Positions 29,232-50,098 of a stretch of 64,000 nt of DNA are shown here, one piece after another. The DNA is taken from contig JAAYBX010000025.1 of the NCBI GenBank assembly GCA_012729955.1, positions 45,168 to 109,167 on the forward strand. The letters run 5' to 3'. Within the stretch, counting starts at the first letter, position 1. Each line of letters starts with the position of its first letter. Origin of the DNA: Clostridiaceae bacterium. GTDB taxonomy: Bacteria > Bacillota > Clostridia > DUPQ01. The notes under the pieces were generated by a model. It was not told the origin of the DNA and did not search any database. It saw only the letters and a program-made list of their open reading frames with translations. A program made the position numbers and the translations under genes.

Positions 29232-29249
29232 AATCGGAGGATAATATAA

Positions 29250-29600: not shown

Positions 29601-29619
29601 ATATTTTTGATTTAGAATA

Positions 29620-29649: not shown

Positions 29650-29674
29650 CTCTCAAATATATTATGATTCATAT

Positions 29675-30442: not shown

Positions 30443-30462
30443 GTATTAATCGAAAACGAATA

Positions 30463-31707: not shown

Positions 31708-31801
31708 GTTATGATTATACCATCGCAAATAAATGTTTTTAAAAAAACGTGTTATTGTGAAGTATAATAACTTTAGATGATTAACCGATTCGGAGGGGAA
31801 T

Positions 31802-32251
31802 ATGAAAGTCATACTCACACAGGATGTAAAAAGTTTAGGTAAGAGGAATCAGCTTGTTGATGTAAGCGATGGATATGCTAAGAATTTTCTTTTTAAGAAA
31901 AATCTTGCTATAGAAGCAGATGCCAAAAACCTTAATATTATGAAAGACAGGATGCAGTCAGATAATTCTAAAAAAGACAGAGAGTTTATTGAAGCAAATA
32001 TCCTGAAGTCAAAATTAGAAGGAAAACAAGTGAAAATGGAAGTGAGAGCAGGTGAAAATGGAAAACTATTCGGCTCCATCACAACTAAAGACATTGCTGA
32101 TGCGATAGCAAGCCAGTATAAAGCAGAAATTGACAAAAGGAAGATACAGCTTGATGAACCTGTAAAAAGCATTGGGAAGTCAGCAGTGGTTATAAAGATA
32201 CATGCTGACGTGAGTATAAATATTGAATTACTGATTACGGAGAAAGCATAA
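31802..32251 (+). CDS. rplI: 50S ribosomal protein L9
   Basis: MKVILTQDVKSLGKRNQLVDVSDGYAKNFLF. GGAGGGG RBS upstream. Confidence 0.95.
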   Translation: MKVILTQDVKSLGKRNQLVDVSDGYAKNFLFKKNLAIEADAKNLNIMKDRMQSDNSKKDREFIEANILKSKLEGKQVKMEVRAGENGKLFGSITTKDIADAIASQYKAEIDKRKIQLDEPVKSIGKSAVVIKIHADVSINIELLITEKA

Positions 32252-32252
32252 G

Positions 32253-33578
32253 ATGGCTGAAAAAATTAAAAGGATGCCCCCACATAGCGAAGAAGCCGAA
32301 CAATATGTTTTGGGATGCCTGCTGCTGGACAGCTCGGCATTTGAACCCGTTCAGAAGAAAATCGATTCTTCTATGTTCTATACCCTGGCGAATCAGAATA
32401 TATATACTGCATTACAGACAGTTTTTATGGGTGGTATACCGGTGGATATAATCTCTGTATCCGAGCAGATGAAAAAAGACAATACATTTTCCGATTCAGG
32501 AGGGATGGAGTATCTCAACAAACTTGCATCACAGATCGTATCAGCTTCATCTGCTGAATATTATGCATCTATAATTTTTGACAAATATATATTAAGATCA
32601 CTTATAAGTCTCAGCGGGGAAGTGTTTGAAGAAGGGTACAGCGATTCAAAGGAAGCAAAGGAACTTTTAGAATATGCCCAACAAAAGCTTTTTGATCTTT
32701 CCGAACAGGCAGATACTGAAGGTGTAAAGAAAATAAGCGACCTTATTGTCCACAGGCTGAACTATTTTCGTGAGCTTAGCAAAACAAAGAAAATGCCTTT
32801 GCGTATAGAAACAGGATTTACTGATCTTGATAAGCTGATACTCGGATTCCAGCCCGGAGATTTTATCCTTATTGCTGCAAGGCCTTCCGTCGGAAAGTCC
32901 ACACTTGCAATGAATATGGCTCAGAATATGGCAATAAGAAAGGGAAAGAATGTTCTTTTTTTAAGTCTTGAAATGTCCAATGAGCAATTAACAGATAGGA
33001 TAATAGCTTCAGAAGCAAGAGTTTCAAATTCAAAACTACAACGTGGAGAAGCTGACCAGAATGAATGGGCTAAAGTTACTGCAACAGCAGGTGTTATACA
33101 TGAATCCAAAATTTTTCTTGATGATACCTCATCAATAACGGTAGCAGATATAAGATCTAAATGCAGAAGATTCAAGAGTGCTGAAAATCTTGATATAATT
33201 TTTATTGATTATCTGCAGCTAATAGGAAGTGCAGTAAAGAAAGAGAACCGGCAGCAGGAAGTCACGGAAATCTCAAGGCAGTTAAAGATACTGGCAAAAG
33301 ACATGAAGATACCTGTAGTTGCACTGTCACAGCTTTCCAGGGCATCTGAACAGAGATCAGACCATGTTCCACAGTTGAGCGATCTTCGTGAGTCAGGAGC
33401 TATTGAGCAGGATGCTGATATTGTCATGTTCCTATACAGGCCTTCACAATTCGACAAAGCTGCCAGCACTCATCTTGTTGATCTGGTTGTGGCAAAAAAC
33501 AGGAATGGTTCAATTGGGAAAGTTAAGCTTGTATGGCAGGATCAAATTGTTAAATTTGACAGCTATAAGCAAGAGTGA
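32253..33578 (+). CDS. dnaB: Replicative DNA helicase (DnaB family)
   Basis: 441 aa. Walker A ARPSVGKST, RecA-like C-domain. Confidence 0.95.
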   Translation: MAEKIKRMPPHSEEAEQYVLGCLLLDSSAFEPVQKKIDSSMFYTLANQNIYTALQTVFMGGIPVDIISVSEQMKKDNTFSDSGGMEYLNKLASQIVSASSAEYYASIIFDKYILRSLISLSGEVFEEGYSDSKEAKELLEYAQQKLFDLSEQADTEGVKKISDLIVHRLNYFRELSKTKKMPLRIETGFTDLDKLILGFQPGDFILIAARPSVGKSTLAMNMAQNMAIRKGKNVLFLSLEMSNEQLTDRIIASEARVSNSKLQRGEADQNEWAKVTATAGVIHESKIFLDDTSSITVADIRSKCRRFKSAENLDIIFIDYLQLIGSAVKKENRQQEVTEISRQLKILAKDMKIPVVALSQLSRASEQRSDHVPQLSDLRESGAIEQDADIVMFLYRPSQFDKAASTHLVDLVVAKNRNGSIGKVKLVWQDQIVKFDSYKQE

Positions 33579-34936
33579 TGATTAAGCTTGATTTAGATGA
33601 TAATTTAATTAAGGATAAAAACTGGTATGCGGCTTTTTCCGGAGGCCCGGATTCCGGATGTCTTCTGTATCTATTGATAAAGAAAAAAGAACAGATTGAA
33701 AAAGAGTATAAAGTAGAAATTAATCTTTCAGCCATTCATGTAAATCATAATCTGAGACAATCCGAAAGCATTAGAGATGAAAATTTCTGCAGACAGTTCT
33801 GTGAGAAATATAATGTCAAATTTCTGCTTTTCAATGTAAATGTCAGTGATTATGCGCAATCAGAGAAATTAACCATAGAGCAGGCTGCCAGAATCCTAAG
33901 ATATGAGATATTTGAAAGATATTCTGACGGATGTGTATTTCTTGGACATAATAAAGATGATAATGCCGAAACAATTTTCATGAATATTTTAAGAGGGAGT
34001 GGGATTCAAGGCTTATGCGGTATAGAAAAAGTTTCAAATCATTATTACAGGCCTCTTCTTGATTACACGAAAAAGCAGATAATTGAATTTAATCATAAAA
34101 ACGGTATTGAATATATAATCGACAGTTCCAATAATTCCAATTACTACATGCGTAATTTTGTAAGAAATGAATTATTCCCGTCAATTAACGAAAAAACCGG
34201 AAAGGATGTTTCCAGTAATTTAGTTTCTTTAGCCAGTCTTGCAAAACAAGCACAAACCTATATCGATAAACAGATTGAGATGGAATTTAAAAAAAGAGTA
34301 ACACTGGAAGAAGATTCCGCTCTGATTGATATTTTGGATTTTATTACTTTGGATGAAATTATATCAAGCGGATTGCTGAGAAAAGCAATACAGCATGTCA
34401 AGAAAATATTAAAGGATGTTGAGAAGAAACACATAGAAATTATTATTAATTTAATTAACAACAGCCAGAGCGGATCGGTTCTTGAGTTGAAAGACGGGAT
34501 CAGAGTACTGCGCCTGCAAAACGATAGAGTCAGAATTTATAAACAAGCAGATAAGGATAATAATTTTTGCGAAAACATAAACATGGAAGGCGACACACAT
34601 ATTGATAGCAGAGGAATTACTGTTCAATCGGAAATCAGTATTTTTGAAGGAGGAGCTGAATATTCAAAAAGATGGGTTATGCTTGATTATGAGGCTGTAA
34701 GGGAAGGCCTTGTTATAAGAAACAGGCGGGTACAGGATTTTATATATCCATCAAAAGGTAATGGTAAAAAATCATTAAAAAAGTATTTTATTGACAATAA
34801 AATAGACAGCGATTTAAGAGATAAACTATTTATTCTTGCGATTGAAAATGAGATAGTGTATATTGAGAACAAGGAAATCGGAAAAAGATTCCGCCCTAAA
34901 AAAGGGAATAAGGCATTAAGATTGGAGTTTATATAA
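33575..34936 (+). CDS. tilS: tRNA(Ile)-lysidine synthetase
   Basis: PP-loop SGGPDS motif. 453 aa. Confidence 0.9.
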   Translation: MMIKLDLDDNLIKDKNWYAAFSGGPDSGCLLYLLIKKKEQIEKEYKVEINLSAIHVNHNLRQSESIRDENFCRQFCEKYNVKFLLFNVNVSDYAQSEKLTIEQAARILRYEIFERYSDGCVFLGHNKDDNAETIFMNILRGSGIQGLCGIEKVSNHYYRPLLDYTKKQIIEFNHKNGIEYIIDSSNNSNYYMRNFVRNELFPSINEKTGKDVSSNLVSLASLAKQAQTYIDKQIEMEFKKRVTLEEDSALIDILDFITLDEIISSGLLRKAIQHVKKILKDVEKKHIEIIINLINNSQSGSVLELKDGIRVLRLQNDRVRIYKQADKDNNFCENINMEGDTHIDSRGITVQSEISIFEGGAEYSKRWVMLDYEAVREGLVIRNRRVQDFIYPSKGNGKKSLKKYFIDNKIDSDLRDKLFILAIENEIVYIENKEIGKRFRPKKGNKALRLEFI

Positions 34937-34937
34937 T

Positions 34938-35483
34938 ATGAGCGGACTATATGATGATGTTAGCGAGATAATGATAACAAGAGAAAGGCTTGATGAAATT
35001 TGTACAGAATTAGGCAGAAAGATATCCGAAGACTATAAAGGCAAAAAACTGATTCTAGTAGGAATAATGAAAGGCGGTTTAATATTTCTTTCCGACCTTT
35101 TAAGGAAGATAACTATTCCTGTGGAATTTGGTACAATAACTGCTTCAAGTTACGGGCAGGGCACATCATCCAGCGGACAGGTCAAAATTCTTCAGGATCT
35201 TGATATGGAAATAAAAGATAAAGATGTAATCATTGTTGAAGACCTTATTGACACCGGTCATACATTAAGATACTTAAAAGAGTTCTTTGCCTTAAGAGGT
35301 CCGAACAGTGTTAAGATATGCTGTATGCTGGACAAACCGTCAAGACGGGAGAAACAGGTTCAAGTTGATTATATCGGTAAGGAAATCCCTGATAAGTTCG
35401 TAGTTGGCTATGGCATGGATTTCAATGAAAAATATAGAAATCTTGCTGATGTATGCGTCCTGAAAGAAGAGCTTTATAAGTAG
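34938..35483 (+). CDS. hpt: Hypoxanthine phosphoribosyltransferase
   Basis: 181 aa. PRPP motif VIIVEDLIDTGHT. Confidence 0.92.
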   Translation: MSGLYDDVSEIMITRERLDEICTELGRKISEDYKGKKLILVGIMKGGLIFLSDLLRKITIPVEFGTITASSYGQGTSSSGQVKILQDLDMEIKDKDVIIVEDLIDTGHTLRYLKEFFALRGPNSVKICCMLDKPSRREKQVQVDYIGKEIPDKFVVGYGMDFNEKYRNLADVCVLKEELYK

Positions 35484-35510
35484 CATAAATGAAGTTTATG
35501 TGAACTTTGT

Positions 35511-35539
35511 TGCATTACGTATGTTCGTATGCTAATATG
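35511..35539 (+). promoter_or_regulatory. Sigma-A promoter for ftsH
   Basis: TTGCAT - 17 nt - TAATAT. Confidence 0.5.
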
Positions 35540-35565
35540 TTTTATCAGGTATAAGGAGATGACTT

Positions 35566-37401
35566 TTGAAAAAATACAAAAATATTAGCTTCTATGTAAT
35601 AACATTTATAATACTGGTGATACTGATTTCACTTTTTACCAATCAGGATTCTGTAAAAGAGCTGGGATATTCAGAGTTTTTAAACCAGCTTGAAAAACAG
35701 AATGTATCTGAAGTTGTTATTCGTACAACAACTCTTTCAGTAACACTAAAAGAACCCATAAAAGATGGGAATAAAGAATTTTATGTCAATGTAGAGAATC
35801 TCGACAAGATTGAAGATATATTGAATCAAGCAAGGCTTACAGATCCGGATCTTTCCTATACATGGAAACCTGAAACGACATCCTGGTGGTTATCTTTACT
35901 TCCTTCGTTTATAATACTTGCTGTCGTTATAATCGTATTTTTTGTTTTTATGAACAAACAAGCCGGAGCAAATAATTCTGCTATGTCTTTTGGTAAAAGC
36001 AGGGCAAGAGAATATAGTGATAAAGACAGAAGAGTGACATTTTTAGATGTTGCAGGTGCTGATGAAGAAAAAGCTGAGCTTGAAGAAGTAGTAGATTTTT
36101 TGAAACAGCCGGAAAAGTACAAAAAATTAGGAGCAAGAATACCAAAAGGTATGCTTATAGTAGGACCTCCAGGTACTGGGAAGACCTTGCTGGCACGTGC
36201 TGTTGCCGGTGAAGCGGGAGTGCCATTCTTCAGTATAAGCGGATCGGATTTTGTAGAAATGTTTGTAGGTGTTGGCGCATCTAGAGTAAGGGATTTGTTT
36301 ACTCAGGCAAAAGCAAAAGCACCCTGTATTATATTTATTGATGAAATCGATGCAGTCGGACGCCACAGAGGTGCAGGTCTGGGAGGCGGCAATGATGAAA
36401 GGGAACAGACACTTAACCAGTTACTTGTTGAAATGGATGGCTTTACAATAGATCAAGGTATCATAATACTTGCCGCTACAAACAGACCTGATATACTTGA
36501 TCCTGCACTTTTACGTCCAGGAAGGTTTGACAGGCGAGTATATGTTAACTATCCTGATGCAAAAGGAAGATATGAGATTTTATTAGTACATACACGCAAT
36601 AAAAAACTTGACACTGATGTCGATTTACATGAGATATCAAAGATAACTCCCATGTTTACAGGTGCAGATATTGAGAACCTTATGAACGAAGCAGCAATAC
36701 TTGCAGCAAAGAGAAATAAAGAAAAGATATCTATGGCGGAAATAAGGGAATCTATTTATAAAGTCGCTATGGGTCCGGAAAAGAAAAGTAAAATTATTTC
36801 TGAAAGTGAAAGAAAACTTACAGCTTATCACGAATCAGGGCATGCGATTGCAATGAGAAATGTTTCATCCACTTCCAAGGTACAGAGGGTGTCTATAATA
36901 CCTGTAGGGCAAGCTGGAGGGTATACCATGCCGATGGCAAATGAAGATAAATATTTCTATACAAAACAGCAATTGCAGGAAGAAATAATCACTTTGCTTG
37001 GAGGCAGAGCAGCAGAACAGTTATCTATAGGTGAAATCAGTACTGGAGCTTCAAATGATTTGCAAAGAGCAAATAAGATAGCAAGAAATATGATAGTAAA
37101 ATACGGTATGAGCGACAGTCTGGCTAATATTGTGTTTCAGGAAGATGATGAAGTGTTTATAGGAAAGGATTACTCGAAAGTAAAAGGTTATTCAGAGGAC
37201 ATAGCAAACAAGATAGACATGGAAACAAAACGGATAATTGATGATTGTTATGAGAAAGTCAAACAAATTTTATCCGATAAGAAGGATATTTTAGAGATAT
37301 TGGCTCGTTCTCTTCTTAAAAATGAAAAGGTTGAAGCAGATGAGTTTGAAAGGATATATAATGGAGAAAATCCTTTCGAAGTAGAAGCTCTGATAGCTTG
37401 A
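35566..37401 (+). CDS. ftsH: ATP-dependent zinc metalloprotease FtsH
   Basis: TTG start after AAGGAG. AAA+ Walker [17 protein letters not shown] (HESGH) Zn site. Confidence 0.95.
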
Positions 37402-37419
37402 GTTTGTAACAAACAGAAT

Positions 37420-37548
37420 ATTGGAACTTATCAAGAGTGGCTGAGAGACTGGCTCAATGACGCCCGGCAACCTGCAATGTAAAGGTGCTAATTCCAAACA
37501 GATGAGGTAATAACAGGTCTCATCAAGAGGCCTTTTTTATAGCAAAGG
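37420..37548 (+). promoter_or_regulatory. SAM-I (S-box) riboswitch with intrinsic terminator
   Basis: CTTATCAAGAG...GGCTCAATGA...CCCGGCAACC...GGTGCTAATTCC consensus blocks, then GGTCTCATCAAGAGGCC hairpin + T6. Directly upstream of metK. Confidence 0.85.
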
Positions 37549-37557
37549 AGAAATTAT

Positions 37558-38721
37558 ATGAGTTTTAGAAAATTATTTACATCTGAATCAGTAACAGAAG
37601 GACATCCGGACAAACTGTGCGATCAGATTTCTGATGCAATCCTTGACGAGATACTTAGAAAAGACAAACAGGCAAGAGTTGCATGTGAGACAGCAGTAAC
37701 GACAGGATTAATTCATGTGATGGGCGAGATAACTACAGACTGTTATGTGGACATTTCAAAAATTGCAAGAGAGACAGCTCTGTCAGTAGGATACACTAGA
37801 GCAAAATTCGGTTTTGATGGAGAAACTTGCGGGGTCATCACCTCTATTAATGAGCAGTCACCTGACATTGCTATGGGTGTGAACAGTTCATATGACATAA
37901 TTGGAGAACAAGGTGCAGGGGATCAGGGAATGATGTTCGGATTTGCATGTGATGAAACAGCAGAACTTATGCCTTATCCCATACAGACAGCCCACAATTT
38001 ATGCAAAAAGCTTTCAAAAGTCAGAAAGGAGAGTAATCATAAATATCTCAGACCAGACGGAAAAAGTCAGGTTACTGTAGAATATGAAGGATATATTCCC
38101 AAAAGAATTGATACTATTGTATTATCATCTCAGCACAGTGATGAAATATCCATTGAAGAATTGAGAGAATACTTGACAAAAGAGGTTATCATGCCAGCAG
38201 TCGATAAAGATATGATAGACAGTAAAACCAAGATTTACATTAATCCGACTGGGAGATTTGTTATCGGAGGGCCTATGGGTGATTCCGGATTAACTGGCCG
38301 AAAGATAATTGTTGATACATATGGAGGTATGGGGCGTCATGGAGGAGGTGCTTTCTCAGGTAAAGATCCTTCAAAAGTGGATCGCTCTGCAGCATATGCT
38401 GCAAGGTATGCAGCGAAAAATGTTGTTGCAAGCGGTATAGCGAAAAGATGCGAAATCCAGATAGCATATGCAATAGGTATGGCACGGCCAGTCTCTGTTG
38501 TGGTGGATACATTCGGAACTGCTTTAATTGATGATGAGCTTATAGCAAAAGCGGTGATGCAGGTATTCGATCTTCGACCACATTCAATTATAGAATCGCT
38601 TGATCTTAAGAATCCTATTTACAAGCAGACAGCAGCATATGGGCACTTTGGAAGATCTGATTTGAATCTGCCCTGGGAGAAGACTGACAAAGCGGAAATT
38701 TTGAGGGACATGCTTAAATAA
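37558..38721 (+). CDS. metK: S-adenosylmethionine synthetase
   Basis: 387 aa. [19 protein letters not shown]; GGGAFSGKD. Confidence 0.95.
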
Positions 38722-38806
38722 AGTATTCATGTTGAGTTAAAAAAAGTATTATAAAGACTGCCAATGCAGTCTTTACTTATATATAAAAATAACATATAAT
38801 GTCAAT

Positions 38807-39379
38807 ATGGATGCTATTATTCAATACATATTTCCAAATGAGAAATATGAGGATATTGAAAACCTTATTTTTAAGCCATATATAAAGGATAATCATATTT
38901 ACTTTACTGAGTATAATGACGTAATATATTCAGTAATCAAATACGCTAAATATACGAAGCATCCTGCTTCATTTGTTCAAATAGGCCGAAAAATTGGAGA
39001 AATTGTAAAAGAAATTGGATTACAGGCTGATTTAATAATTTATGTCCCGATGTATATTACTGATCAGAAGAGACGCGGTTTTAATCAATCAATGATATTA
39101 GCCGAACAAATATCCAGATATACAGACATAGAAATATGCCATAAAGCATTAAAAAAAGTAAAGAAGACAAGAAATCAGGCGTCACTGAATGCACCAATGA
39201 GATCAGTTAATCTTCATAATGCATTCATTGCTGATGACAGATACACAACAGGAAGGAGGATAATTCTTGTTGATGATATATATACGACTGGTACTACCCT
39301 GAACGAATGTAAAAAAGTCCTAATGGAAAGTATGGCTGATTCTGTAATTTATATCACTGTAACAAAAAAAAATATATAA
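38807..39379 (+). CDS. ComF-family phosphoribosyltransferase-fold protein (ComFC-like, no N-terminal zinc finger)
   Basis: PRTase motif RRIILVDDIYTTGTTLNE. 190 aa, shorter than canonical ComFC. Confidence 0.65.
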   Translation: MDAIIQYIFPNEKYEDIENLIFKPYIKDNHIYFTEYNDVIYSVIKYAKYTKHPASFVQIGRKIGEIVKEIGLQADLIIYVPMYITDQKRRGFNQSMILAEQISRYTDIEICHKALKKVKKTRNQASLNAPMRSVNLHNAFIADDRYTTGRRIILVDDIYTTGTTLNECKKVLMESMADSVIYITVTKKNI

Positions 39380-39386
39380 TTGTATA

Positions 39387-39414
39387 TTGACAATAAATGT
39401 AAATATAATATTAT
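39387..39414 (+). promoter_or_regulatory. Sigma-A promoter for the Tad locus
   Basis: TTGACA - 16 nt - TATTAT, then strong RBS AAGGAGG before the 39436 ATG. Confidence 0.5.
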
Positions 39415-39435
39415 GTATCTACACAAGGAGGAATA

Positions 39436-40806
39436 ATGTTTTTCAGTGAAAGATACAAGATTATACAGCCATTGCTTAAGAATTCAAGAGAAGCAAAATA
39501 TCTTGTGTTTGATGAAATAGATAAGTGCAAAAAGGTAATAAGCGAAAAAAGCAGCAAATCCGAAATGGAATCTGATATTGAACAGTTATCAAAGATTGAG
39601 CACATAGGAATACCTAGAATTACCGATTATTTTAAATTTAATGATTGTTGCTGTATAGTACATGAGTATATTGAAGGTGAAACATTAAAAGAATACATAG
39701 ATAAAAAGGGAGTTATGGATTTATATGAAGCATTAGATATATTTGTAAAGCTTCTTCACACTGTTAAGTTTCTCCATGATATAAAACCTGTCGGTATAAT
39801 TCATGGCAATATACATCATGATAATGTTATTCTGATTGAAGATGATGTCTATTTAACAGATTATGGCATCAAGGATGAAAACAAGAATCCATATCAAGCA
39901 CCTGAATCAATATTGGGAGTGAAGAAAAGCAAACAGCAGGATATATACTCATTGGGAATGCTTTTTAACTATATGATTACGGGAAGTTACAAAAAGCCTG
40001 GATATTCAGAAAAAAACGTAAACATCACAGATTCACTGATTATCAGAAGCACTAGTGCTAATTTTAATAATCGCTTTGAAGATACCGGCATAATGATTAC
40101 TGAGTGTGAAAGACTGATAAGGAATTTGTCATGTAATTCATCAAAACCAAATTCAAAAATAATCGCCATAAATGGCAGTCATGAAGCAGTTTTTGAATTC
40201 GCAAAATACTATAGTAAAGCTTCATCAGATAATACCTTAATTATTGATGCTGATATTCTGCATCCTTCTTTCGAATCCGATAATTATATTCTGAATGAAG
40301 ATATACAAAGCATGATGGATAAAGTTGATAAAGGAGAAGATATAGAAATATCATTTAAAAAAGCTAAAGCTTGTTCTAGGGTATACATAATACCTAGCAT
40401 TATCCGGATAGAAGGATATGAAAATATTACATTTGCTTCATTCTATAATCTTCTAATCAGATTAACTGAGGATTTTAACTTGATATTCATAAAATGTTCA
40501 GATTTCATCTATGATTCACTGGCAATAAATACATACATTATTTCTGATCAGATAATCCATATCATGTCTGATCCTTTAGCTGATATTAAGCTGTTTAATA
40601 AAATTAGCGAATATCTTTGTTCCAGACATGACATTGATAATCAAAGATTCAATGCATTTATTTATAAGGAGAAAACAAAAAATATCATAGCTGCTGGGAT
40701 AAAAGAAAATCTTTTAGGTGAATACCTAGGCTCAGCAAACAGTCAGAGCAGACTGTATGCAAAAGATTTAATGAATATAGCAAATAAGATAAGGAGGAAA
40801 CTGTAA
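39436..40806 (+). CDS. Fusion protein: N-terminal Hanks-type Ser/Thr (pseudo)kinase domain + C-terminal degenerate ParA/MinD-like TadZ/CpaE domain
   Basis: Kinase subdomains are visible: hinge IVHEYIEGETL, catalytic loop HGNIHHDNVIL (HRD->HGN), DYG, APE, DIYSLGMLFNYMITG. There is no Gly-rich loop. The C-terminal half, KIIAINGSHEAVFEF...LIIDADILHPSF, aligns to a ParA deviant-Walker-A region but lacks GKT. Confidence 0.65.
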   Translation: MFFSERYKIIQPLLKNSREAKYLVFDEIDKCKKVISEKSSKSEMESDIEQLSKIEHIGIPRITDYFKFNDCCCIVHEYIEGETLKEYIDKKGVMDLYEALDIFVKLLHTVKFLHDIKPVGIIHGNIHHDNVILIEDDVYLTDYGIKDENKNPYQAPESILGVKKSKQQDIYSLGMLFNYMITGSYKKPGYSEKNVNITDSLIIRSTSANFNNRFEDTGIMITECERLIRNLSCNSSKPNSKIIAINGSHEAVFEFAKYYSKASSDNTLIIDADILHPSFESDNYILNEDIQSMMDKVDKGEDIEISFKKAKACSRVYIIPSIIRIEGYENITFASFYNLLIRLTEDFNLIFIKCSDFIYDSLAINTYIISDQIIHIMSDPLADIKLFNKISEYLCSRHDIDNQRFNAFIYKEKTKNIIAAGIKENLLGEYLGSANSQSRLYAKDLMNIANKIRRKL

Positions 40807-40807
40807 T

Positions 40808-42001
40808 ATGGCTGTACTTAAAAGCTTATCATCTTTAAATGATGAATTCGACAATAACAGATATGCAAAGGGCAGTTACCCTTTATCAAAAGTTGTTACT
40901 GATGTTACAAAAGAAATATTGAGTGTTTCACCTGAACTTGTAGTTAATGCATATTATGATAACAAGCAAAGAAGCTTTTTAGAGAACAGGATTTTAAACA
41001 TATTAGATAAACAGCAGTATTTTGCTATCGGGTCTAAAAGAAAAATGATAAAGAGCGTATTTGATTTTATGTTCGGATACGGGCAGCTTCAGGAATATAT
41101 AGAAGATGATGATATCACAGATATTGACGGAGTACGCTTTGATTGTTTTTCCATTACAAAAAACGGAGTTAGGATGCCTGCTGATATTAATTTTAACACT
41201 GAGACAGATTTATATGTTTATTGTAAATTAGTTGCTTTAAGAAATGGGGGCATACTTAACGAAAATGACAGTCATTGCAGGGTAGCTGATATACAGAACA
41301 AACTGCGTATTAACATATCTATATATCCAAGAAATATATCCGGTCCTGCAATTTCCATCCGAAAACATAGAAAATCCGCATACACATTGAAAAATCTGAA
41401 TGAGCTTGGGATGTTGGATAATATAAGTACAGATATATTAAAAAAGACTTTATCAACGCGTCATACCATAATACTGTGCGGAAAAGGCGGTTCTGGAAAA
41501 ACAACTTTACTTAGAGCTTTGATTAATGCGCTTCCTGATATGGAAAGAGTGCTTATAGTCGAATCAGATGCGGAAATTTATCCTGACAAGAAGTATTGTA
41601 TAGAACAGAGAGTGAAAAGAGATAATGAAGGAGGCAATCCAATTACTCTTGATATGCTGATAAAAGACGGTCTGACTATGTCACTTGACACATATTGCAT
41701 TGGTGAGATTGTAGGAAGCGAAGCAATGGCATTTTTAAATGCATGCTGTTCTGGACACAGATTTTTAACTACAATGCATGCTGATAAGCCGCAGGACTGT
41801 GTTAAGAGGCTTATTGCTCTGGCTAAGGGAGCAAAAGGAATTAGTGACGAAAAAATGCTTTTAACCCTGTATGGAGAAGGTGTCGACTGTGTGGTCTTCA
41901 TGCAAAACTTCAAAGTAACCAGAATAATGTATGTTAAGGGAATGGATTCTGCCAATAATGCTGTAGTTTATGAAGATGCATACATAAGGAGCCTAGAATG
42001 A
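40808..42001 (+). CDS. tadA: Tad/Flp pilus assembly ATPase CpaF/TadA (VirB11 superfamily)
   Basis: Walker A ILCGKGGSGKTT. GEIVGSEAMAFLNACCSGHRFLTTMHADKP is diagnostic for CpaF. Confidence 0.9.
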   Translation: MAVLKSLSSLNDEFDNNRYAKGSYPLSKVVTDVTKEILSVSPELVVNAYYDNKQRSFLENRILNILDKQQYFAIGSKRKMIKSVFDFMFGYGQLQEYIEDDDITDIDGVRFDCFSITKNGVRMPADINFNTETDLYVYCKLVALRNGGILNENDSHCRVADIQNKLRINISIYPRNISGPAISIRKHRKSAYTLKNLNELGMLDNISTDILKKTLSTRHTIILCGKGGSGKTTLLRALINALPDMERVLIVESDAEIYPDKKYCIEQRVKRDNEGGNPITLDMLIKDGLTMSLDTYCIGEIVGSEAMAFLNACCSGHRFLTTMHADKPQDCVKRLIALAKGAKGISDEKMLLTLYGEGVDCVVFMQNFKVTRIMYVKGMDSANNAVVYEDAYIRSLE

Positions 42002-42795
42002 TTTATCTGGTTATCAATGTAATATTCTTTACGATTCTTGTTTTCTTCTTGAAAAAGAAGGGTATAAAGTATAATTTCAAATTTATATATAATAACCAGC
42101 TCGGGAAGATTATCATAGTTTTATGTATGGTCATATTTGTAATACTAGGTGTAATAATTAATAAAAATCTCAATAATCCTGTTACCAGTTTCTGTATTTC
42201 ATTAATGCCGGCTTTTATCCCATATCTAGTATATGATCTTATTAAAAGTTCTGTCTTTACAAAGGAGAAGGAAAGCATAACATCCCTGCTTATGGTGCTG
42301 ACTAAATGGAGCGCAGTAAGAAATGATGCCGTATACTGCCTTCAGAAAACGGATGAGACAAAATTATCAAAACCTATTGGCGGATATATCAAGGATATAT
42401 GCATACGGCTTGAAAAAGGGATGAGTGTTTCTGAAGCACTGATAGCTTGTGAAAAGACTGTTTTAAGCGAAGAACTTCGTTATGTATTAATAAATATAAG
42501 ATATGCATATGAAAAAGGCGGAAGTCTTTACAGGATATTCAAAAGCCTGGAAAACCAATTTTTTAAAATCGACGAAGAGAATTTTAAAAGAAGAATTAAT
42601 ACCGCATCGGATAAATATGCTGTATATATTTCAATAATCATGGTTATGGCTACTTTTTACATGGTTGTACTTAATAAAGGGCAGTCAAGCAGATTTTACC
42701 TTAACACAGATACAGGAATGATATTGCTAGGAGTATTTGCAGGCCTTTTCTTTATAGGAATTATGATTATAGCGAAAGTAATCAAGAGGTATTAG
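41998..42795 (+). CDS. tadB: Tad pilus inner-membrane platform protein TadB (T2SSF domain)
   Basis: 265 aa. TM-helical with GspF-like domain. ATGA overlap with tadA. Confidence 0.7.
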   Translation: MIYLVINVIFFTILVFFLKKKGIKYNFKFIYNNQLGKIIIVLCMVIFVILGVIINKNLNNPVTSFCISLMPAFIPYLVYDLIKSSVFTKEKESITSLLMVLTKWSAVRNDAVYCLQKTDETKLSKPIGGYIKDICIRLEKGMSVSEALIACEKTVLSEELRYVLINIRYAYEKGGSLYRIFKSLENQFFKIDEENFKRRINTASDKYAVYISIIMVMATFYMVVLNKGQSSRFYLNTDTGMILLGVFAGLFFIGIMIIAKVIKRY

Positions 42796-42796
42796 A

Positions 42797-43588
42797 ATGA
42801 TTGAATGGATGAGAAATCTAATCTATATTGGTAATTTTGGTGTCGGTATTCTTTTTGCTTCACATATCGCATGTATGAAATTACATGAACGTGAAGGAAA
42901 AACAAAAATAAACAGAGTTGAACATATAGTTAATGGGTATTTATTAAAGATTTCTGAAAAATTTGGTATACCTTCAGAAAAAACAAAGGAATTTGCGAGC
43001 CTTATATTGTTTTTCATAATCTTATGCCTTTTAGCAGCTATAACATCAGGTATATCCAAAGCACTTATCATATTAGTGCCTTGTATCATATGTATATTCA
43101 TTACTAAGAAAGTATGGGAAAAAAATATAAATGATATGTTTCAAAAGAATGCCTATAAGCTATATCGGTATCTGATTTCTCAGATAATAGCAGGAGTAAA
43201 ACCAAAAGATGTGATTATAAATATGTACAAGATAACAGAAGACAAAAGTTTAAAGAAAATTCTCACAAAGGCTTCTGCAGCGTATTCAATAACACTTGAT
43301 GGGAAAACATATTCAGATGTAATAAAAGCATCGATTAAGACTGAAGACGCAAACAGATTTTGTATGATTCTAGAAGAGGATCTTTTATATACCGATAATG
43401 AGGAATTTTTGGAAAAAATGGAAGAAATGATGTTCAACAGACATTTTTCTTATCATCAGAAAAGAACAGACAGTATAAAAAAAGGCTGCTTCGCGGCAGT
43501 ATGCGTATTCATGCTTATCGTGATAATCATGGTAGCTCTGCCGCTTATGAATGAGCTTGTGCAGGGGCTCAAATATATATTTTTATAG
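42797..43588 (+). CDS. tadC: Tad pilus inner-membrane platform protein TadC (T2SSF domain)
   Basis: 263 aa, same architecture as TadB. Starts 2 nt after the tadB stop. Confidence 0.65.
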   Translation: MIEWMRNLIYIGNFGVGILFASHIACMKLHEREGKTKINRVEHIVNGYLLKISEKFGIPSEKTKEFASLILFFIILCLLAAITSGISKALIILVPCIICIFITKKVWEKNINDMFQKNAYKLYRYLISQIIAGVKPKDVIINMYKITEDKSLKKILTKASAAYSITLDGKTYSDVIKASIKTEDANRFCMILEEDLLYTDNEEFLEKMEEMMFNRHFSYHQKRTDSIKKGCFAAVCVFMLIVIIMVALPLMNELVQGLKYIFL

Positions 43589-43597
43589 GAGGAGAAA

Positions 43598-43789
43598 ATG
43601 ATAGTTAACAAACAAAACAAAAGAGGATTCGGTGTTTCCGAAATTATCGGAATAGCGACGGTGTTAGTAATTGCAGCTGCGGTTGTAATACCTGGACTAA
43701 GAGAAATTGCATCAGACATAATAACTTCTACCAAAACATGGGTAGGAACAAGGATGTCTGAGATTTTCGAAGTATCTTCAGGAACCTAA
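43598..43789 (+). CDS. flp: Flp/type IVb prepilin
   Basis: 63 aa. Leader MIVNKQNKRG, then FGVSEIIGIATVLVIAAAVV (Glu at +5) hydrophobic helix. Strong AGGAGG RBS. Confidence 0.8.
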   Translation: MIVNKQNKRGFGVSEIIGIATVLVIAAAVVIPGLREIASDIITSTKTWVGTRMSEIFEVSSGT

Positions 43790-43798
43790 CAAACACAT

Positions 43799-44173
43799 AT
43801 GGCTGAGAAGATAATTATTAGCATAATCACTTTACTCATAATACTGTGCATATTCGCTTATTTTGTGGATGTCCTGACAGTTATATCAAAAAATATGGAA
43901 TTTCATGATATATGCAGAGGATATATGCACATAGCTGAACAGAATTCAGGATTAAGTTATGAACATAAGTTAAGTATGATGGATAATCTTATTTCCAGGG
44001 GCTTTGATAATGTTGTAATCTCAGCCCCTGCATCAGCCATGTATGGAAGCATGTTTAACCTGGATATTCAAGCATCATATGAAGTTAATATGATAACAGA
44101 TGTCTTTACTTGGAATTCGCAGGAGTATGTGATGCATTTCAGTCAGAACATTACAGCAAGAAGGATCTATTGA
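43799..44173 (+). CDS. TadE-like pseudopilin/minor pilin
   Basis: 124 aa. N-terminal TM helix, small secreted domain. In Tad operon position. Confidence 0.55.
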   Translation: MAEKIIISIITLLIILCIFAYFVDVLTVISKNMEFHDICRGYMHIAEQNSGLSYEHKLSMMDNLISRGFDNVVISAPASAMYGSMFNLDIQASYEVNMITDVFTWNSQEYVMHFSQNITARRIY

Positions 44174-44174
44174 G

Positions 44175-44630
44175 ATGAATTTGAAGAAGAAGGGGACAGG
44201 AATACCGGAAGTGCTTGTATGCGTTTTTATACTTATTTATATAATGCTTCCCCTCTTTTGTTCCACTGTTCATAAAGCAATGTTTTATCATCAAGCAGCC
44301 AAAATTGAGCAGGCTGTTGAAATGGCAGTCATATCATTGATAAATGAAAATAGTACTCAAATATTTTCTTTTGGTTTTATTGAATTACAGGCTGATGAAC
44401 AGCAGCTTAAGTATCTGGTTTCTAATGAAATATCTAAAAGCTGCATCAGTTCGTTAAGCGTAAATGATGATGATATATATATTTCTGTGATTGAAACAGG
44501 TAACAGATGCAGCTGCGGAATATATAACGAACACTTTATGATTTCAGCGGATATAACTGCAACATTAGATTTTCTAGGACAAAGACAGTTTGAAGTTCAT
44601 AAACATGTCGAATTTCCAGTTATAAGGTGA
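44175..44630 (+). CDS. TadE/TadG-like minor pilin with prepilin-type leader
   Basis: MNLKKKG/TGIPEVLVCVF gives a G-cleavage site with Glu+5. 151 aa. Confidence 0.55.
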   Translation: MNLKKKGTGIPEVLVCVFILIYIMLPLFCSTVHKAMFYHQAAKIEQAVEMAVISLINENSTQIFSFGFIELQADEQQLKYLVSNEISKSCISSLSVNDDDIYISVIETGNRCSCGIYNEHFMISADITATLDFLGQRQFEVHKHVEFPVIR

Positions 44631-44676
44631 TTATACATATTTAAAATGTAAATTAGCAGAAAGTATTAGGAGAAAT

Positions 44677-45294
44677 ATGAAAAGATATAAATACTATATA
44701 TTAGCGGGCATATTTGCCATCTTTCTTACAATATTGCAGATATTCATATCCAGATCATTTATTGAAAAGGATAAAGGGTATGTTTTCATAGCGGAAAGAG
44801 CGATATTAAAAGGAGAGCATATTAAGGAAGAGGATGTGAAAAGAATACAGGTATATGGAATATCATCAACATTTACTATCGATGAGAATAAAATATGTAT
44901 TAATGATATTCAGGAAGGAACCATACTGGCAAATGAGATGCTATGTGATATGCCGCCTGAAAAAGATTTACGAGTAATATGCCTGCCTGTAGATAAAAGC
45001 AGATGTCCTTTTGCAATACTGTCTTCATCAGATACTATCAATGTCTTTATAATGCCTGATAACAAATCGATAAGCATATATGAATCAGCATGGCTGGATA
45101 AAGTACTAAAAGAGCTTGGTATTTCATATGATAGTGAAAGTGATATAGGGTTCATGATTGAAAATCTTGAAATAGCTGATCTGGGAACTTATGAAAGCTC
45201 AAATTACTCTATTAGCATAAAAGTACCAAAGCTAATAGATAAGCTTTTTGCATTTATTAAAGGACATTGCACGATAGAGATTATACTGCCTTAA
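44677..45294 (+). CDS. cpaB: Flp pilus assembly protein CpaB/RcpC-like (SAF domain)
   Basis: N-terminal TM, then SAF-like region VFIAERAILKGEHIKEEDV. Confidence 0.6.
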   Translation: MKRYKYYILAGIFAIFLTILQIFISRSFIEKDKGYVFIAERAILKGEHIKEEDVKRIQVYGISSTFTIDENKICINDIQEGTILANEMLCDMPPEKDLRVICLPVDKSRCPFAILSSSDTINVFIMPDNKSISIYESAWLDKVLKELGISYDSESDIGFMIENLEIADLGTYESSNYSISIKVPKLIDKLFAFIKGHCTIEIILP

Positions 45295-45363
45295 TGATAT
45301 TGAGTGTGGAAAGATAAAATTCTTTATGATATACTTTTTTATATAATATGTCATGGAGGAGAT

Positions 45364-46185
45364 ATGGATAAATACTACGAGAGCTTACTCAAGTCAGTTG
45401 AATATATTAAATCGAAAATCAAAGATAAACCTGTACTCGGTATAGTGCTGGGTTCCGGTCTTGGTATGCTTGCATCACATATACAGGACAGGATTGAATT
45501 AGATTATCATGAGATACCGAATTATCCTGTATCAACCATTCCTGGACATGCTGGGAAATTAATATTTGGTTATCTTAGCGGTAAATATGTAGCTTGTATG
45601 GCAGGCAGATTTCACTATTATGAAGGATACGAAGCAGAACAGATACATATCGGTGTACGGACTTTTAAGCTGCTGGGTGCAGATGGAGTTATAATAACCA
45701 ATGCTGCAGGAGGGATAAACACTGCATTTAAAGAAGGAACTATAATGCTCATAAATGACCATATAGGTTTTATGGCACCATCAGCTCTTAGAGGACCAAA
45801 TATAGATATGCTCGGTGAAAGATTTTTTGATATGTCTAAGGTCTATGATAAGCAATACCTTGATACAGCAAGAAATGTCGCTAAAAAGATAGGACTTGAT
45901 GTTAAAGAAGGTGTTTACATGTTCTTCAAAGGACCTAATTTCGAGACTCCTGCGGAAATAAGAGCTGCAAGGATTCTAGGCGCAGACGCAGCGGGAATGT
46001 CTACTGTCCCTGAGGTTGTGGCTTGCGCTCATTGCAATCTGAAAGTGCTTGGCATGTCCGTTATAACCAATATGGCTGCCGGTATTCTGGATAAGAAACT
46101 TAACCATGAGGAAGTTATGGAGACAGCAAATCGTATACATGAAACATTTATCGAATATGTTAAACAGATAGTTAAGGAGCTATAA
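45364..46185 (+). CDS. punA: Purine nucleoside phosphorylase I (inosine/guanosine)
   Basis: Start set at ATG after the GGAGGAG RBS. PNP family I motifs (GSGLG, MSTVPE). Confidence 0.88.
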   Translation: MDKYYESLLKSVEYIKSKIKDKPVLGIVLGSGLGMLASHIQDRIELDYHEIPNYPVSTIPGHAGKLIFGYLSGKYVACMAGRFHYYEGYEAEQIHIGVRTFKLLGADGVIITNAAGGINTAFKEGTIMLINDHIGFMAPSALRGPNIDMLGERFFDMSKVYDKQYLDTARNVAKKIGLDVKEGVYMFFKGPNFETPAEIRAARILGADAAGMSTVPEVVACAHCNLKVLGMSVITNMAAGILDKKLNHEEVMETANRIHETFIEYVKQIVKEL

Positions 46186-47430
46186 ATGGAGTATGAAATT
46201 AAGGATCTTTCATTAAAGGATATTGGAAGAGAAAAGATAGAATGGATTAAGGATTTTATGCCTGTTCTTTCTTCAATTGAGAAAGAACTTATTGGTGAAC
46301 AGCCTTTAAAAGGGATAAAAGTAACAATGGCTCTTCATCTTGAAGCAAAGACAGCTTATCTGGCAGTTGTAATGCATAATCTTGGAGCACAAGTCAGAGT
46401 AACAGGAAGCAACCCTCTTTCCACTCAGGATGAAATAACTGCAGCGCTTGTAGATATCGGAATATCTGTATTTGCTTATAGGGGAGTGGACAGTGAGACA
46501 TATAAGAACCATCTTGTAAAAGCTCTTGCCCATAAACCGAATATAGTCATAGATGATGGAGCTGATCTTGCACACACTTTACATAAGCAGCATCCAGAGC
46601 TTATGGCTGATGTTTATGGCGGATGTGAAGAAACCACAACAGGTATAGTGCGTCTTAAAGCTATGGATAGTCAGAAGATTCTGAAGTACCCTATGTTCGC
46701 GATTAATGATGCTGATTGCAAGCATTTATTTGATAACCGGTATGGTACAGGCCAGTCCTCACTTGAAGGTATTATGCGTGCGACCAACCTAACACTTTTT
46801 GGCAAGAAGCTAGTTGTAGCTGGTTATGGGTGGTGCGGTAAAGGAATAGCATCAAAAGCAAAAGGGTTTGGAGCTAATGTGATAGTTACTGAAGTTGATA
46901 CTATAAAAGCCTTAGAAGCTGTTATGGATGGATTTGATGTAATGCCCATGGATCAGGCAGCTAGGATAGGTGATATTTTTATTACAGTTACCGGTAATAT
47001 TGATGTGATTACAGAAAAACACTTTTTAAATATGAAAAATAATGCGATATTATGCAACGCAGGGCATTTCGATTGTGAGATATCCATGAATCAACTCAAT
47101 AAGATTGCTGTCAAACAGGAAAAGAGAAGAAATGGGGTTGCTGGATATTATCTGAAAAACGGTAATGTTATAAATGTTCTTGGAGAGGGAAGACTGGTTA
47201 ATTTGGCATGCGCAGACGGGCATGCTGCAGAAATAATGGATATGAGTTTTTCTCTGCAGCTTCTTACTGCATTACATATATTAAAGAACAGAGGCAAGCT
47301 TGAGAACAAATTGTATAATGTTCCAGCCAGTATCGATAGGGCTGTAGCTGAAGCGAAACTGAAATCAATGGGAATCAGTATTGATATACTTTCAAATGAA
47401 CAAAAAAAATATTTAGAGAGCTGGGAGTAA
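46186..47430 (+). CDS. ahcY: Adenosylhomocysteinase
   Basis: 414 aa. NAD-binding GYGWCGKG; typical SAHH N-terminus. Confidence 0.92.
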   Translation: MEYEIKDLSLKDIGREKIEWIKDFMPVLSSIEKELIGEQPLKGIKVTMALHLEAKTAYLAVVMHNLGAQVRVTGSNPLSTQDEITAALVDIGISVFAYRGVDSETYKNHLVKALAHKPNIVIDDGADLAHTLHKQHPELMADVYGGCEETTTGIVRLKAMDSQKILKYPMFAINDADCKHLFDNRYGTGQSSLEGIMRATNLTLFGKKLVVAGYGWCGKGIASKAKGFGANVIVTEVDTIKALEAVMDGFDVMPMDQAARIGDIFITVTGNIDVITEKHFLNMKNNAILCNAGHFDCEISMNQLNKIAVKQEKRRNGVAGYYLKNGNVINVLGEGRLVNLACADGHAAEIMDMSFSLQLLTALHILKNRGKLENKLYNVPASIDRAVAEAKLKSMGISIDILSNEQKKYLESWE

Positions 47431-47431
47431 G

Positions 47432-49099
47432 ATGAAATTTTCCGTAAAAGACAGAATTATACCTTGCCCAAAAAACATAAAGGCAAATGAGAGTTTTACT
47501 TTCTTCAGGAACAGGACAAAAGTCATTCTTAAAGCTGAGAAGTCACCAATTTTATCGAATGCATATGAAATGCTTAATTCCTTATGCTCTGATGGGTACA
47601 TCAATCCGGATTTTATAATTACATTAAAAAAGATTGATGAGTATTATGAGTATAAGGAACTGGAAAAATGCATTAATAAGAAGCAGGCATATATTATAAG
47701 ACCTGTCATTAAGGATAAAATATTTGCTGGTCTTGATCTTATGGCATACACTGATGTCGGGTTATATTATGCATGTACAACACTATACCAGACAATCATA
47801 CAGATTTCTGATAAGGAAATTGAAATACCGGTTTTAGAAGTATCTGATTGGCCTTCAATAGAGTACAGAGGAATGTTTTTAGGAGACTATATCAAATGTC
47901 TTCCATATACGTCAATGCTGAAACTTAATGCACTTGATTATGTATATAATACTAAGAACAAGGAGAAAGAAAAGGAGATTTATTCAGATTGCGATAGATA
48001 CGGTATTACTCCTTTCAGTGCTGTTTTTGAATGGGAGGATCCTGCAGAGATTTTTGAAAAACTGTACAAATCTGAACATAAGAATAATCTGTTGTTTTGG
48101 ATGAATGAGCAATGGGATGAAGCTGAGCTTTATTATGAGACAACGAGGATACTGGATGCTTTTAATGCATATAGTAAAGAAGATAATCAGTTGGAAGCAG
48201 GAATTATTACCAATTTCAAAGGGGATAAGACATTTGACAGGATTTTTAATCAGCCACTGCCAAATAACTTCTCAATCTCTTACTGCGATAAGACAAAGAC
48301 ATATAATACTGATGTAAGAGAAATTACAGATGCATCTATTGCTGCATTTGCAAAAAACAGTGGTAAATTCGGTATATATCCCATGATAGCTTTTGATATA
48401 AATACATTCTTCTTATGGACATCACCTGAATTTATTCAATTCAGATGTGCGGAATTCGACAGGATTAAAGCTCATAAGGTTATGGGTTATACCCCATATG
48501 CATGTTCATTCTTGAAATTTAATATTTCAGCATTTGCAGAGTGGTTATGGAATCCCAAAGGCAGAAATACCATAGACTTTATAAAAGCTTATGCTTACAG
48601 GGAAAACTTAGATTATGATAAATACGAAAATATGCTATATTATCTTACATTTGCATCCTGGTCATTACAAAGAAGCAATTTCGTACAGTGTCTAAATGAG
48701 GAAACTGTTGATTTTAAAAAGCTTAAAAAACTATCACGGCCAAAGCAGATGGCAAATGATGCTCAAAGAGCATCGAAATACGCACAGCTGCTTGAGAATC
48801 CAATTCTGATAAATGAAACTCAAGCTACATATTCAGCAATCATAGCGTATGATCTCACAAAAAAACTGCTAAGGCTTTCATCTCTGAAAAAACCAAACAG
48901 GAGGAAATACCTTATCTGCAGGGAAAAACTGGATGAAGCATGTAAATCCGTTTATACAAGCCTTATGGGTTGGGCAGAACATATGAAGAAGGAATCCGGA
49001 GCATATGACACATATATTCATGAAACTGCTAAGGCTTTTTTGCATCTTCCATCCATTTTTAATAAATTTGAATCTGAAAGTATTAAAGCATCTGAATAG
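47432..49099 (+). CDS. Hypothetical protein with GH20-like (beta-hexosaminidase-like) N-terminal motif, probably non-canonical
   Basis: VSDWPSIEYRGMFLGD resembles the GH20 DxPRFxYRGxMLD start of the catalytic barrel. No H-x-G-G-D-E seen. 555 aa. Confidence 0.4.
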   Translation: MKFSVKDRIIPCPKNIKANESFTFFRNRTKVILKAEKSPILSNAYEMLNSLCSDGYINPDFIITLKKIDEYYEYKELEKCINKKQAYIIRPVIKDKIFAGLDLMAYTDVGLYYACTTLYQTIIQISDKEIEIPVLEVSDWPSIEYRGMFLGDYIKCLPYTSMLKLNALDYVYNTKNKEKEKEIYSDCDRYGITPFSAVFEWEDPAEIFEKLYKSEHKNNLLFWMNEQWDEAELYYETTRILDAFNAYSKEDNQLEAGIITNFKGDKTFDRIFNQPLPNNFSISYCDKTKTYNTDVREITDASIAAFAKNSGKFGIYPMIAFDINTFFLWTSPEFIQFRCAEFDRIKAHKVMGYTPYACSFLKFNISAFAEWLWNPKGRNTIDFIKAYAYRENLDYDKYENMLYYLTFASWSLQRSNFVQCLNEETVDFKKLKKLSRPKQMANDAQRASKYAQLLENPILINETQATYSAIIAYDLTKKLLRLSSLKKPNRRKYLICREKLDEACKSVYTSLMGWAEHMKKESGAYDTYIHETAKAFLHLPSIFNKFESESIKASE

Positions 49100-49789: not shown

Positions 49790-49867
49790 TGTGCCTGTAT
49801 TGACATACAATGAATTGATGGTATAATACTCTCAATATGGCGTTACAAGAAGGATGAGTAACATGTA

Positions 49868-50068
49868 TTTTGTGATAAAGAGAGAGGGGAGCGGTGAGAA
49901 CCCTTGCAAGGATATATGTGAAAGCTAGCCTTTGAAGCCTTCCGCAAAACGGAACGTACTCCTGCGTTAAAGGTTTAAGAGCTTTCAAGAGAATGTATTC
50001 TATTATGAAAGAATTTGGGTGGTACCGCGTGATAACTCTCGTCCCTTTACAGGATGGGAGTTTTTTAT
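49868..50068 (+). promoter_or_regulatory. T-box leader (tRNA-Ala-responsive) with terminator
   Basis: Stem I AGAGAG / GGTGAGA elements. Probable GCU specifier (AAAGCUAG). Canonical T-box AATTTGGGTGGTACCGCG, then a terminator hairpin + T7, immediately before alaS. Confidence 0.8.
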
Positions 50069-50098
50069 ATACAATATACTAGGAATAAGGTGAAAAAA

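Follow-up and report, generated by a model that had tools for sequence, protein, structure and literature searches.

No core component of Tad pili is, to our knowledge, less well understood than TadZ, and the way in which a degenerate receiver and a weak ATPase position the machine has yet to be settled. Control of secretion-machine assembly by a Hanks-type kinase is known from the type VI secretion system (T6SS), where PpkA is a separate membrane kinase that acts through the FHA protein Fha1. Canonical TadZ combines an atypical receiver domain (ARD) with a ParA/MinD-like domain carrying a K/RGGxGxS/T Walker-A-like motif, and positions or recruits TadA (bioRxiv 10.64898/2026.07.08.737194); the receiver-like N-terminus that the original prediction ascribed to it corresponds to this ARD. 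The modularity of TadZ is illustrated by Bdellovibrio bacteriovorus TadZA, an ARD-less TadZ fused to TadA (bioRxiv 10.64898/2026.07.08.737194). EssB/YukC is the pseudokinase of the Firmicutes type VIIb secretion system (T7SSb) (PMC11217815).

The gene described here lies in a 64,000-nucleotide stretch of Clostridiaceae DNA (the window), and its resemblance to each of these systems is partial. Like the genes for Eubacterium rectale TadZ (PDB 3fkq) and Caulobacter CpaE, it sits directly upstream of tadA/cpaF and encodes a C-terminal ParA/MinD-like domain. However, where TadZ and CpaE carry an ARD at the N-terminus, the window protein has a predicted Hanks-type pseudokinase, their Walker-A-like motif is wholly deleted, and its C-domain has no HMMER-detectable sequence similarity to 3fkq. 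TadZA offers a parallel in that the ARD can be lost or swapped for another interaction solution, but there the fusion partner and direction are different, the Walker-A-like motif is kept and the host is a diderm predator. EssB/YukC is the closest precedent, being a dead Hanks-kinase fold that a Firmicutes secretion machine employs for structure or interaction, although it resides in the membrane and has an extracellular domain, partnering the EssC FHA domains, and lacks any ParA-like domain or link to a pilus. PpkA/Fha1 resembles those relatives of the window protein that have a canonical kinase, since in both a Ser/Thr kinase is coupled to the assembly of an envelope nanomachine; in the present family, by contrast, kinase and adaptor form one protein, and in the window protein the kinase appears to be dead.

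Two further candidates were considered and set aside. The Tad locus of the TANB77 pilin paper is a different one, encoding TadZ and CpaE as small proteins of their own and lacking a kinase. The kinase-like TshM of T7SSh, encoded beside Tad genes, has a C-terminal transmembrane helix and has been attributed to the T7SS; it therefore does not share the architecture of the window protein. An atlas of bacterial Ser/Thr kinases makes no mention of ParA or pilus fusions (bioRxiv 10.1101/2025.01.12.632604), and our literature search turned up no account of a TadZ-like protein fused to a kinase or pseudokinase, in line with the earlier suggestion that the architecture was undescribed. The Tad operon, the TadZ-type adaptor and the Hanks pseudokinase are all known parts; it is the fusion of a kinase or pseudokinase to a TadZ-like domain that is new.

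Results

A fusion gene at the head of a Tad-type operon

The fusion gene (39436..40806, + strand) is a complete, uninterrupted ORF with an ATG start, encoding the 456 amino acids originally predicted: a putative pseudokinase followed by a P-loop-less ParA/MinD-like domain, in the position of TadZ. The Hanks-type domain spans residues 1-230 (39436..40125, +) and the ParA/MinD-fold domain residues 238-456 (40147..40803, +). All of the motifs quoted earlier were located at the expected places, with IVHEYIEGETL at residues 74-84, HGNIHHDN at 123-130, DYG at 142-144, APE at 155-157, DIYSLG at 169-174, KIIAINGSHEAVFEFAK at 241-257 and LIIDADILHPSF at 268-279. The full-length protein was modelled using AF2 with moderate confidence (pLDDT 77, pTM 0.74), the N-lobe reaching only 36-68.

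A candidate sigma-70-like promoter, TTGACA-16 nt-TATTAT (39387..39414, +), is proposed from its match to consensus alone (11/12 positions); it is the top-scoring site within 38600..45600 and lies inside the 56-nt gap that separates a ComF-family gene from the fusion gene. An AGGAGG sequence (39426..39431, +), read as the ribosome-binding site, is found 4 nt ahead of the ATG at 39436. Only 1 nt separates the fusion-gene stop from the start codon of the next gene (40808..42001, +), which encodes a 397-aa TadA/CpaF-type secretion ATPase (Pfam T2SSE, 88.3 bits). Among NCBIfam models, the top matches of this ATPase are to TadA-family, VirB11 and TrbB proteins, and the TadA-family model TIGR03819 is matched with an E value of 8e-38, under that model's cut-off. 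A TadB-like platform protein (41998..42795, +; Pfam T2SSF, 35.9 bits, cut-off 25.2) overlaps tadA by 4 nt. It is followed by a TadC-like platform protein (42797..43588, +) that is assigned by position and size only, having no Pfam match; a gene is present at that position in every related locus. Next come a Flp-like short pilin of 63 aa (43598..43789, +), with a KRG/FGVSE class-III-type signal and no Pfam or curated-family match, and two pseudopilin-like genes of 124 and 151 aa (43799..44630, +; weak DUF4320 match, E 0.0023), the second with a G/TGIPE signal. The last gene of the operon (44677..45294, +) encodes a 205-aa protein with an N-terminal transmembrane helix. It is a candidate CpaB/RcpC-like protein: its own sequence has no Pfam match, and the gene at the same position in two related loci (L018 and L020) matches SAF weakly.

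With tadA 1 nt downstream and platform and pilin genes beyond it, the fusion gene heads a compact Tad-type operon, as had been proposed. The cluster has the ATPase and the separate TadB and TadC that mark a Tad (type IVc) system, TadC by position only. A scan of all window ORFs for the G[GAS]GD.K-type motif of the TadV prepilin peptidase returned no match, which is a weak test, as the gene may be elsewhere in the genome. Gene order around the operon is conserved in the close family, running yajC ... rplI-dnaB-tilS-hpt-ftsH-metK-comF-fusion-tadA-tadB-tadC-pilins-pnp-ahcY-alaS.

A ParA/MinD-like domain with a predicted two-residue link in place of the P-loop

The original prediction was of a ParA/MinD-like C-terminal half without a Walker A motif, and its ParA/MinD nature is borne out by deeper profiles, hhalign and structure comparison. 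The single C-terminal sequence had no match in Pfam, where AAA_31 is weakly matched by two family members, and a 7-sequence profile of the domain found no match in the PDB. Detection at the level of the PDB needed a 39-sequence alignment drawn from the 133 relatives described below; this profile matched 3ea0, a Chlorobium 'ParA family ATPase', with an E value of 8.9e-6 and several MinD structures with E values of 3e-5 to 1e-4. A model of the C-domain built from the same alignment was predicted with pLDDT 91.6 and pTM 0.90. Foldseek comparison of this model ranked 3ea0 first (E 1.7e-8), followed by FleN and MinD; the solved E. rectale TadZ structure 3fkq came 13th (E 6.6e-6), a match no better than those of MinD or FleN, and was absent from the HMMER profile searches of the PDB at E<=10 with both the 7- and the 39-sequence profiles. 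Taken together, the profile matches, the predicted structure and the Foldseek matches place the C-terminal half without doubt in the ParA/MinD fold.

In the modelled domain, strand beta1 (KIIAIN, 241-246) is followed by just two residues, G247-S248, and then directly by helix alpha1, whereas MinD has the eight-residue loop GKGGVGKT in place of this two-residue link. The sequence at the Walker-A place, KIIAINGSHE, corresponds to neither KGGxxGK[ST] nor K/RGGxGxS/T, and in HMM alignments the 'GN/GS' of the C-domain family falls on the 'GK' of the MinD Walker A. On this model the domain lacks a phosphate-binding loop, which would rule out the ATP-driven dimer switch of ParA and MinD. Three aspartates are conserved, D271 and D273 as in switch I and D360 as in Walker B, and D271 and D360 are the sole near-invariant columns in a 132-sequence alignment of the C-domain. 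The SIMIBI ATPases MinD, FleN, FlhG and ParA, including 3ea0, are the best fold and profile matches and have the switch-I and Walker-B aspartates in common with the window protein, but they possess a deviant Walker A that it lacks, so that their ATP-sandwich dimer cycle should be absent here.

The C-domain gene occupies the tadZ position in divergent loci

A search of 1.84 billion representative proteins with a profile of the C-terminal alignment yielded 133 relatives of the C-domain. A custom kinase HMM detected a Hanks-kinase N-terminus in 38 of them, in the same domain order as in the window protein even for distant relatives, and in those tested with Pfam both Pkinase and AAA_31 were matched, AAA_31 above its cut-off in P0026. 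Other members have no N-terminal domain at all (approx. 250-280 aa in total) or an N-domain of approximately 140 aa. This latter domain, in non-kinase relatives of approximately 390 aa, gave no match in Pfam or the PDB; the N-terminus of P0071 matches Response_reg weakly (E 0.04). The window family and the approximately 390-aa subfamily are related with 99.5% probability by hhalign (E 3.7e-23).

In every locus inspected, the C-domain gene lies directly 5' of a T2SSE ATPase gene, whatever its N-terminus. This holds for pseudokinase N-termini (the window, L001/L002 and L003), intact kinases (L012, L014, L018, L019, L020 and L021), the non-kinase N-domain (L015) and a protein without N-terminal domain (L017). 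The search for the same architecture in other Tad loci, which had been set as a check, was successful. Downstream of the ATPase gene there are usually T2SSF genes, small pilin genes and a gene with a weak SAF (CpaB-like) match. The chromosomal neighbours differ between loci, being metK-comF in some and tig-clpP-clpX in others, which ties the C-domain gene to the Tad operon rather than to the surrounding region.

From its position, its translational coupling to tadA and its fold, we conclude that the window gene is probably the TadZ equivalent of its operon: a cytoplasmic subunit for docking or positioning in the Tad-type (type IVc) pilus machine of a monoderm, in which neither domain would carry out enzymatic chemistry. 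The TadZ label given originally is thus upheld by gene position and fold, and orthology by gene position, but not by sequence, as 3fkq shows no similarity detectable by HMMER. This leaves room for a different view, in which the C-domain is an independently recruited ParA/MinD-like regulator, akin to FleN/FlhG or to BY-kinases, that is no TadZ equivalent and controls pilus number or transcription instead of motor docking. The better structural matches to FleN and MinD than to TadZ, and the missing sequence-level match to 3fkq, would fit such a regulator, as would the profile of a related subfamily, which matches the BY-kinases VpsO and CapB best. We nevertheless regard independent recruitment as unlikely. 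Across very divergent lineages, and in all loci checked, the domain is encoded next to the TadA-type ATPase on its 5' side, the place by which tadZ is defined; the fusion protein has no DNA-binding domain, and neither the operon nor the window contains another ParA-like gene. Some relatives, moreover, have a weakly receiver-like N-terminus as in canonical TadZ, P0071 being the example.

An N-terminal kinase fold with degenerate catalytic residues

The N-terminal half matches Pfam Pkinase (PF00069) over residues 33-233 with 68.2 bits (E 9.7e-19), well above the gathering score of 31.7, and in a phmmer search of the PDB residues 3-195 align with Staphylococcus aureus PknB (4eqm; E 1.2e-12). As this alignment includes the N-lobe, the kinase domain is complete. 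The protein was previously thought to carry subdomains V-IX; the kinase fold stands, but its extent was underestimated. With a Pfam score above cut-off and a bilobal fold, the domain belongs to the Hanks-type protein kinases.

The state of the catalytic residues was read from alignments to PknB and to P0012, a canonical Stk1-type kinase from the homology search. The Gly-rich loop is absent, as had been noted from the sequence, with LLKNSREAKY standing where canonical kinases have LGEGGMANVY or LGGGGMSTVY. Loss of the VAIK Lys, which had been left as a check, is seen in S36 at that position. HGNIHHDN aligns to HRDLKPQN, so that HRD becomes H123-G124-N125, bearing out the predicted replacement of Asp by Asn, and the catalytic-loop Lys is also gone (H127). 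Kept are the catalytic-loop Asn (N130), the DFG Asp (D142, in D-Y-G), APE (155-157) and the alpha-F Asp (D169). The activation segment is only 10 residues long, compared with 22-23 in canonical kinases, and contains no Ser or Thr. A kinase domain is classed as a pseudokinase by sequence when it is without at least one of the VAIK Lys, HRD Asp and DFG Asp (bioRxiv 10.1101/2025.01.12.632604). Two of the three are missing here, and the N-terminal half is, as judged from these residues, a pseudokinase by this usual definition, in accordance with the original reading.

The same losses run through the clade of the window protein, in which HRD is replaced by HGN, HGS or HNN and the catalytic-loop Lys by His. 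The VAIK-Lys position holds Ser or Phe in all members but P0007, which keeps Lys, and in P0008 the DFG Asp is lost as well (NYK). Among the wider family the picture is different, as most of the 38 kinase-bearing representatives keep their catalytic residues. Five (P0059, P0064, P0070, P0074 and P0120) are fully canonical, with a GxGGxxxVY loop, AIK, YRD, DFG and a 22-residue activation loop; in a larger, reduced group (P0016-P0033 and others) the Gly-rich loop is lost, while the Lys, the DFG Asp and H[GL]D-x-KPxN are still present; and the catalytic residues are lost in the window clade and, independently, in P0090 and P0097. Since the kinase-bearing relatives are mostly catalytically intact, the window clade is a pseudokinase offshoot of an undescribed kinase-TadZ-like family. 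The 'grafting' of a kinase domain that was first proposed is therefore right as to the fusion, but it is no one-off event, the window protein representing a degenerate branch of a wider family of fusions between a kinase and a P-loop-less ParA-like domain. The graded series suggests that an active kinase-TadZ fusion with phospho-control was the ancestor and that catalysis was then lost repeatedly; scaffolding would in that case be the derived state, a polarity that we infer from the series.

Given this ancestry, one might suppose that the window protein is still an atypical but active kinase or an ATP-binding switch, which uses non-canonical residues, such as a relocated Lys (K21) in beta2, to phosphorylate Tad components and gate assembly. 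A Lys relocated to beta2 is familiar from the WNK kinases, and K/R21 is kept in most members of the window clade. Retention of D142, N130 and APE would also be in keeping with activity, as would the intact K/D/D triad of relatives with the same C-domain, some of them fully canonical. We consider this unlikely, however. Every member of the clade has Asn or Ser in place of the HRD Asp, an exchange of the kind classically made to obtain kinase-dead mutants; His stands in for the catalytic-loop Lys, there is no Gly-rich loop and only one member still has the VAIK Lys, while P0008 lacks even the DFG Asp. The independent degeneration of P0090 and P0097 argues further that catalysis is dispensable for the role of the fusion. 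The probable pseudokinase may still bind some ligand or metal, conceivable for the fusion protein as a whole in view of the conserved DFG Asp, catalytic-loop Asn, APE and two ParA-type aspartates.

Conservation of the fusion

Among 5.8 billion proteins, the close family comprises nine clusters, from uncultured Clostridia throughout, and its members are labelled only 'protein kinase' or 'PrkC', database names that would conceal the pilus role of kinase-TadZ-like proteins. Fusion and synteny were both found in seven MAG species of the GTDB genome set, down to 39% identity, and the single ORF occurs in several metagenomes too. Complete members are 451-460 aa in length, contain both halves and are 38-75% identical. 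The homologues all come from uncultured MAGs.

Conservation is higher in the pseudokinase half than in the ParA-like one for every pair compared, with identities of 74-79% versus 67-73% for close pairs and 44-47% versus 30-35% for distant pairs. For L005-L006, the sole informative pair for dN/dS (nearly all others being saturated, with dS > 1.4 or undefined), omega comes to 0.098 over the kinase half, which is under purifying selection, and to 0.123 over the C-terminal one. The idea that a frameshift introduced in sequencing or assembly has merged two genes, or that the fusion gene is a pseudogene in decay, can be dismissed, as full-length single-ORF orthologues occur in independent assemblies at these levels of identity, omega is approximately 0.1 in both halves and distant kinase-fusion relatives share the domain order.

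Discussion

We propose a docking or positioning role for the window protein in the Tad machine. In the absence of a usable P-loop, the C-domain would most likely be a static, nucleotide-independent adaptor that binds the co-translated TadA ATPase, the TadB/TadC platform or both. The pseudokinase would occupy the place that the ARD has in canonical TadZ. Strongly constrained yet devoid of catalytic residues, it would most likely serve, by analogy with EssB/YukC, as a non-catalytic protein-interaction or allosteric module, and could couple the assembly or placement of the pilus to a cellular partner. Since the clade stems from a family with an apparently active kinase on the same domain, phospho-control would be the ancestral logic of these fusions.

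Besides EssB of the T7SSb, the window protein would then be a second bacterial pseudokinase that forms part of a secretion or pilus machine. The C-domain family as a whole forms a natural series on one P-loop-less ParA-like scaffold, on which are found no N-domain, an unassigned N-domain, a weakly receiver-like domain, a kinase in canonical or reduced form, and a pseudokinase. This series allows one to ask whether the N-terminal module of TadZ is merely an exchangeable docking domain, and whether Tad assembly can be controlled by Ser/Thr phosphorylation.

More tentatively, uncultured Clostridia may possess an unrecognised class of Tad-pilus assembly hubs, in which a Hanks kinase, be it active, reduced or a dedicated pseudokinase according to lineage, replaces the receiver domain of TadZ as well as its ATP switch, and which would put assembly under Ser/Thr phospho-signalling or pseudokinase scaffolding. 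As a separate observation, ComF-family and PC4-like ssDNA-binding genes recur beside the kinase-TadZ-like operons; because they flank them repeatedly, the pilus may possibly be one for DNA uptake (competence).

Repeated catalytic loss and an alternative N-terminal domain

Beyond the window's clade, the related fusion proteins P0090 and P0097 have also lost their catalytic residues, and these losses are independent: their catalytic loops read HLE-x-S and HLE-x-D, with NYG and DYG motifs. Conversion of kinase to pseudokinase on the kinase/ParA-like scaffold has therefore taken place more than once.

Seven representatives of about 390 aa (P0029, P0037, P0039, P0042, P0046, P0048 and P0062) form a non-kinase subfamily that has the P-loop-less ParA-like domain in common with the fusion family and carries a conserved N-terminal domain of ~140 aa, for which Pfam and PDB sequence searches yielded no match. 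A 'GIDNTGLNIALD' insertion is also conserved in this subfamily. Its genes can likewise head a Tad-type operon, as the first gene of the operon in locus L015 (6780..7946) demonstrates.

Genomic neighbourhood and possible role of the pilus

The Tad-type operon of the window is directly preceded on its 5' side by a ComF-family phosphoribosyltransferase gene (38807..39379, + strand; NCBIfam comF, E = 4.8e-30). This adjacency is maintained in distant relatives; it is seen in the pseudokinase loci L001/L003 (~9330..9943) and in the intact-kinase locus L012 (4473..7855), and in L012 a RecD2 gene and one prepilin (N_methyl) gene accompany the ComF-family gene. This gene context hints that the Tad-type pilus may function in DNA uptake.

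In two other kinase-TadZ-like lineages, a gene for a PC4-like protein (PF02229, ssDNA-binding) lies directly 3' of the terminal SAF/CpaB-like operon gene (L018, 13104..13385; L020, 7843..8094). These genes are a second pointer towards DNA handling.

Other features of the window

A SAM riboswitch (37425..37508, + strand; 69.9 bits) precedes metK (37558..38721), and a T-box leader (49834..50049, + strand; 107 bits) precedes the alanyl-tRNA synthetase gene (50054..52693). A 555-aa ORF (47432..49099, + strand) is flanked by the AdoHcy hydrolase gene on one side and a lipoprotein-like ORF on the other; its positional counterpart in L003, a related pseudokinase locus, encodes 615 aa and has no Pfam family recorded. 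A motif scan of the whole window (1..64000) found neither a prepilin-peptidase-like motif nor any other ParA/MinD gene of the deviant-Walker-A type. GC skew is positive nearly everywhere over the same span, and nearly all of the genes accordingly sit on the + strand (leading-strand bias).
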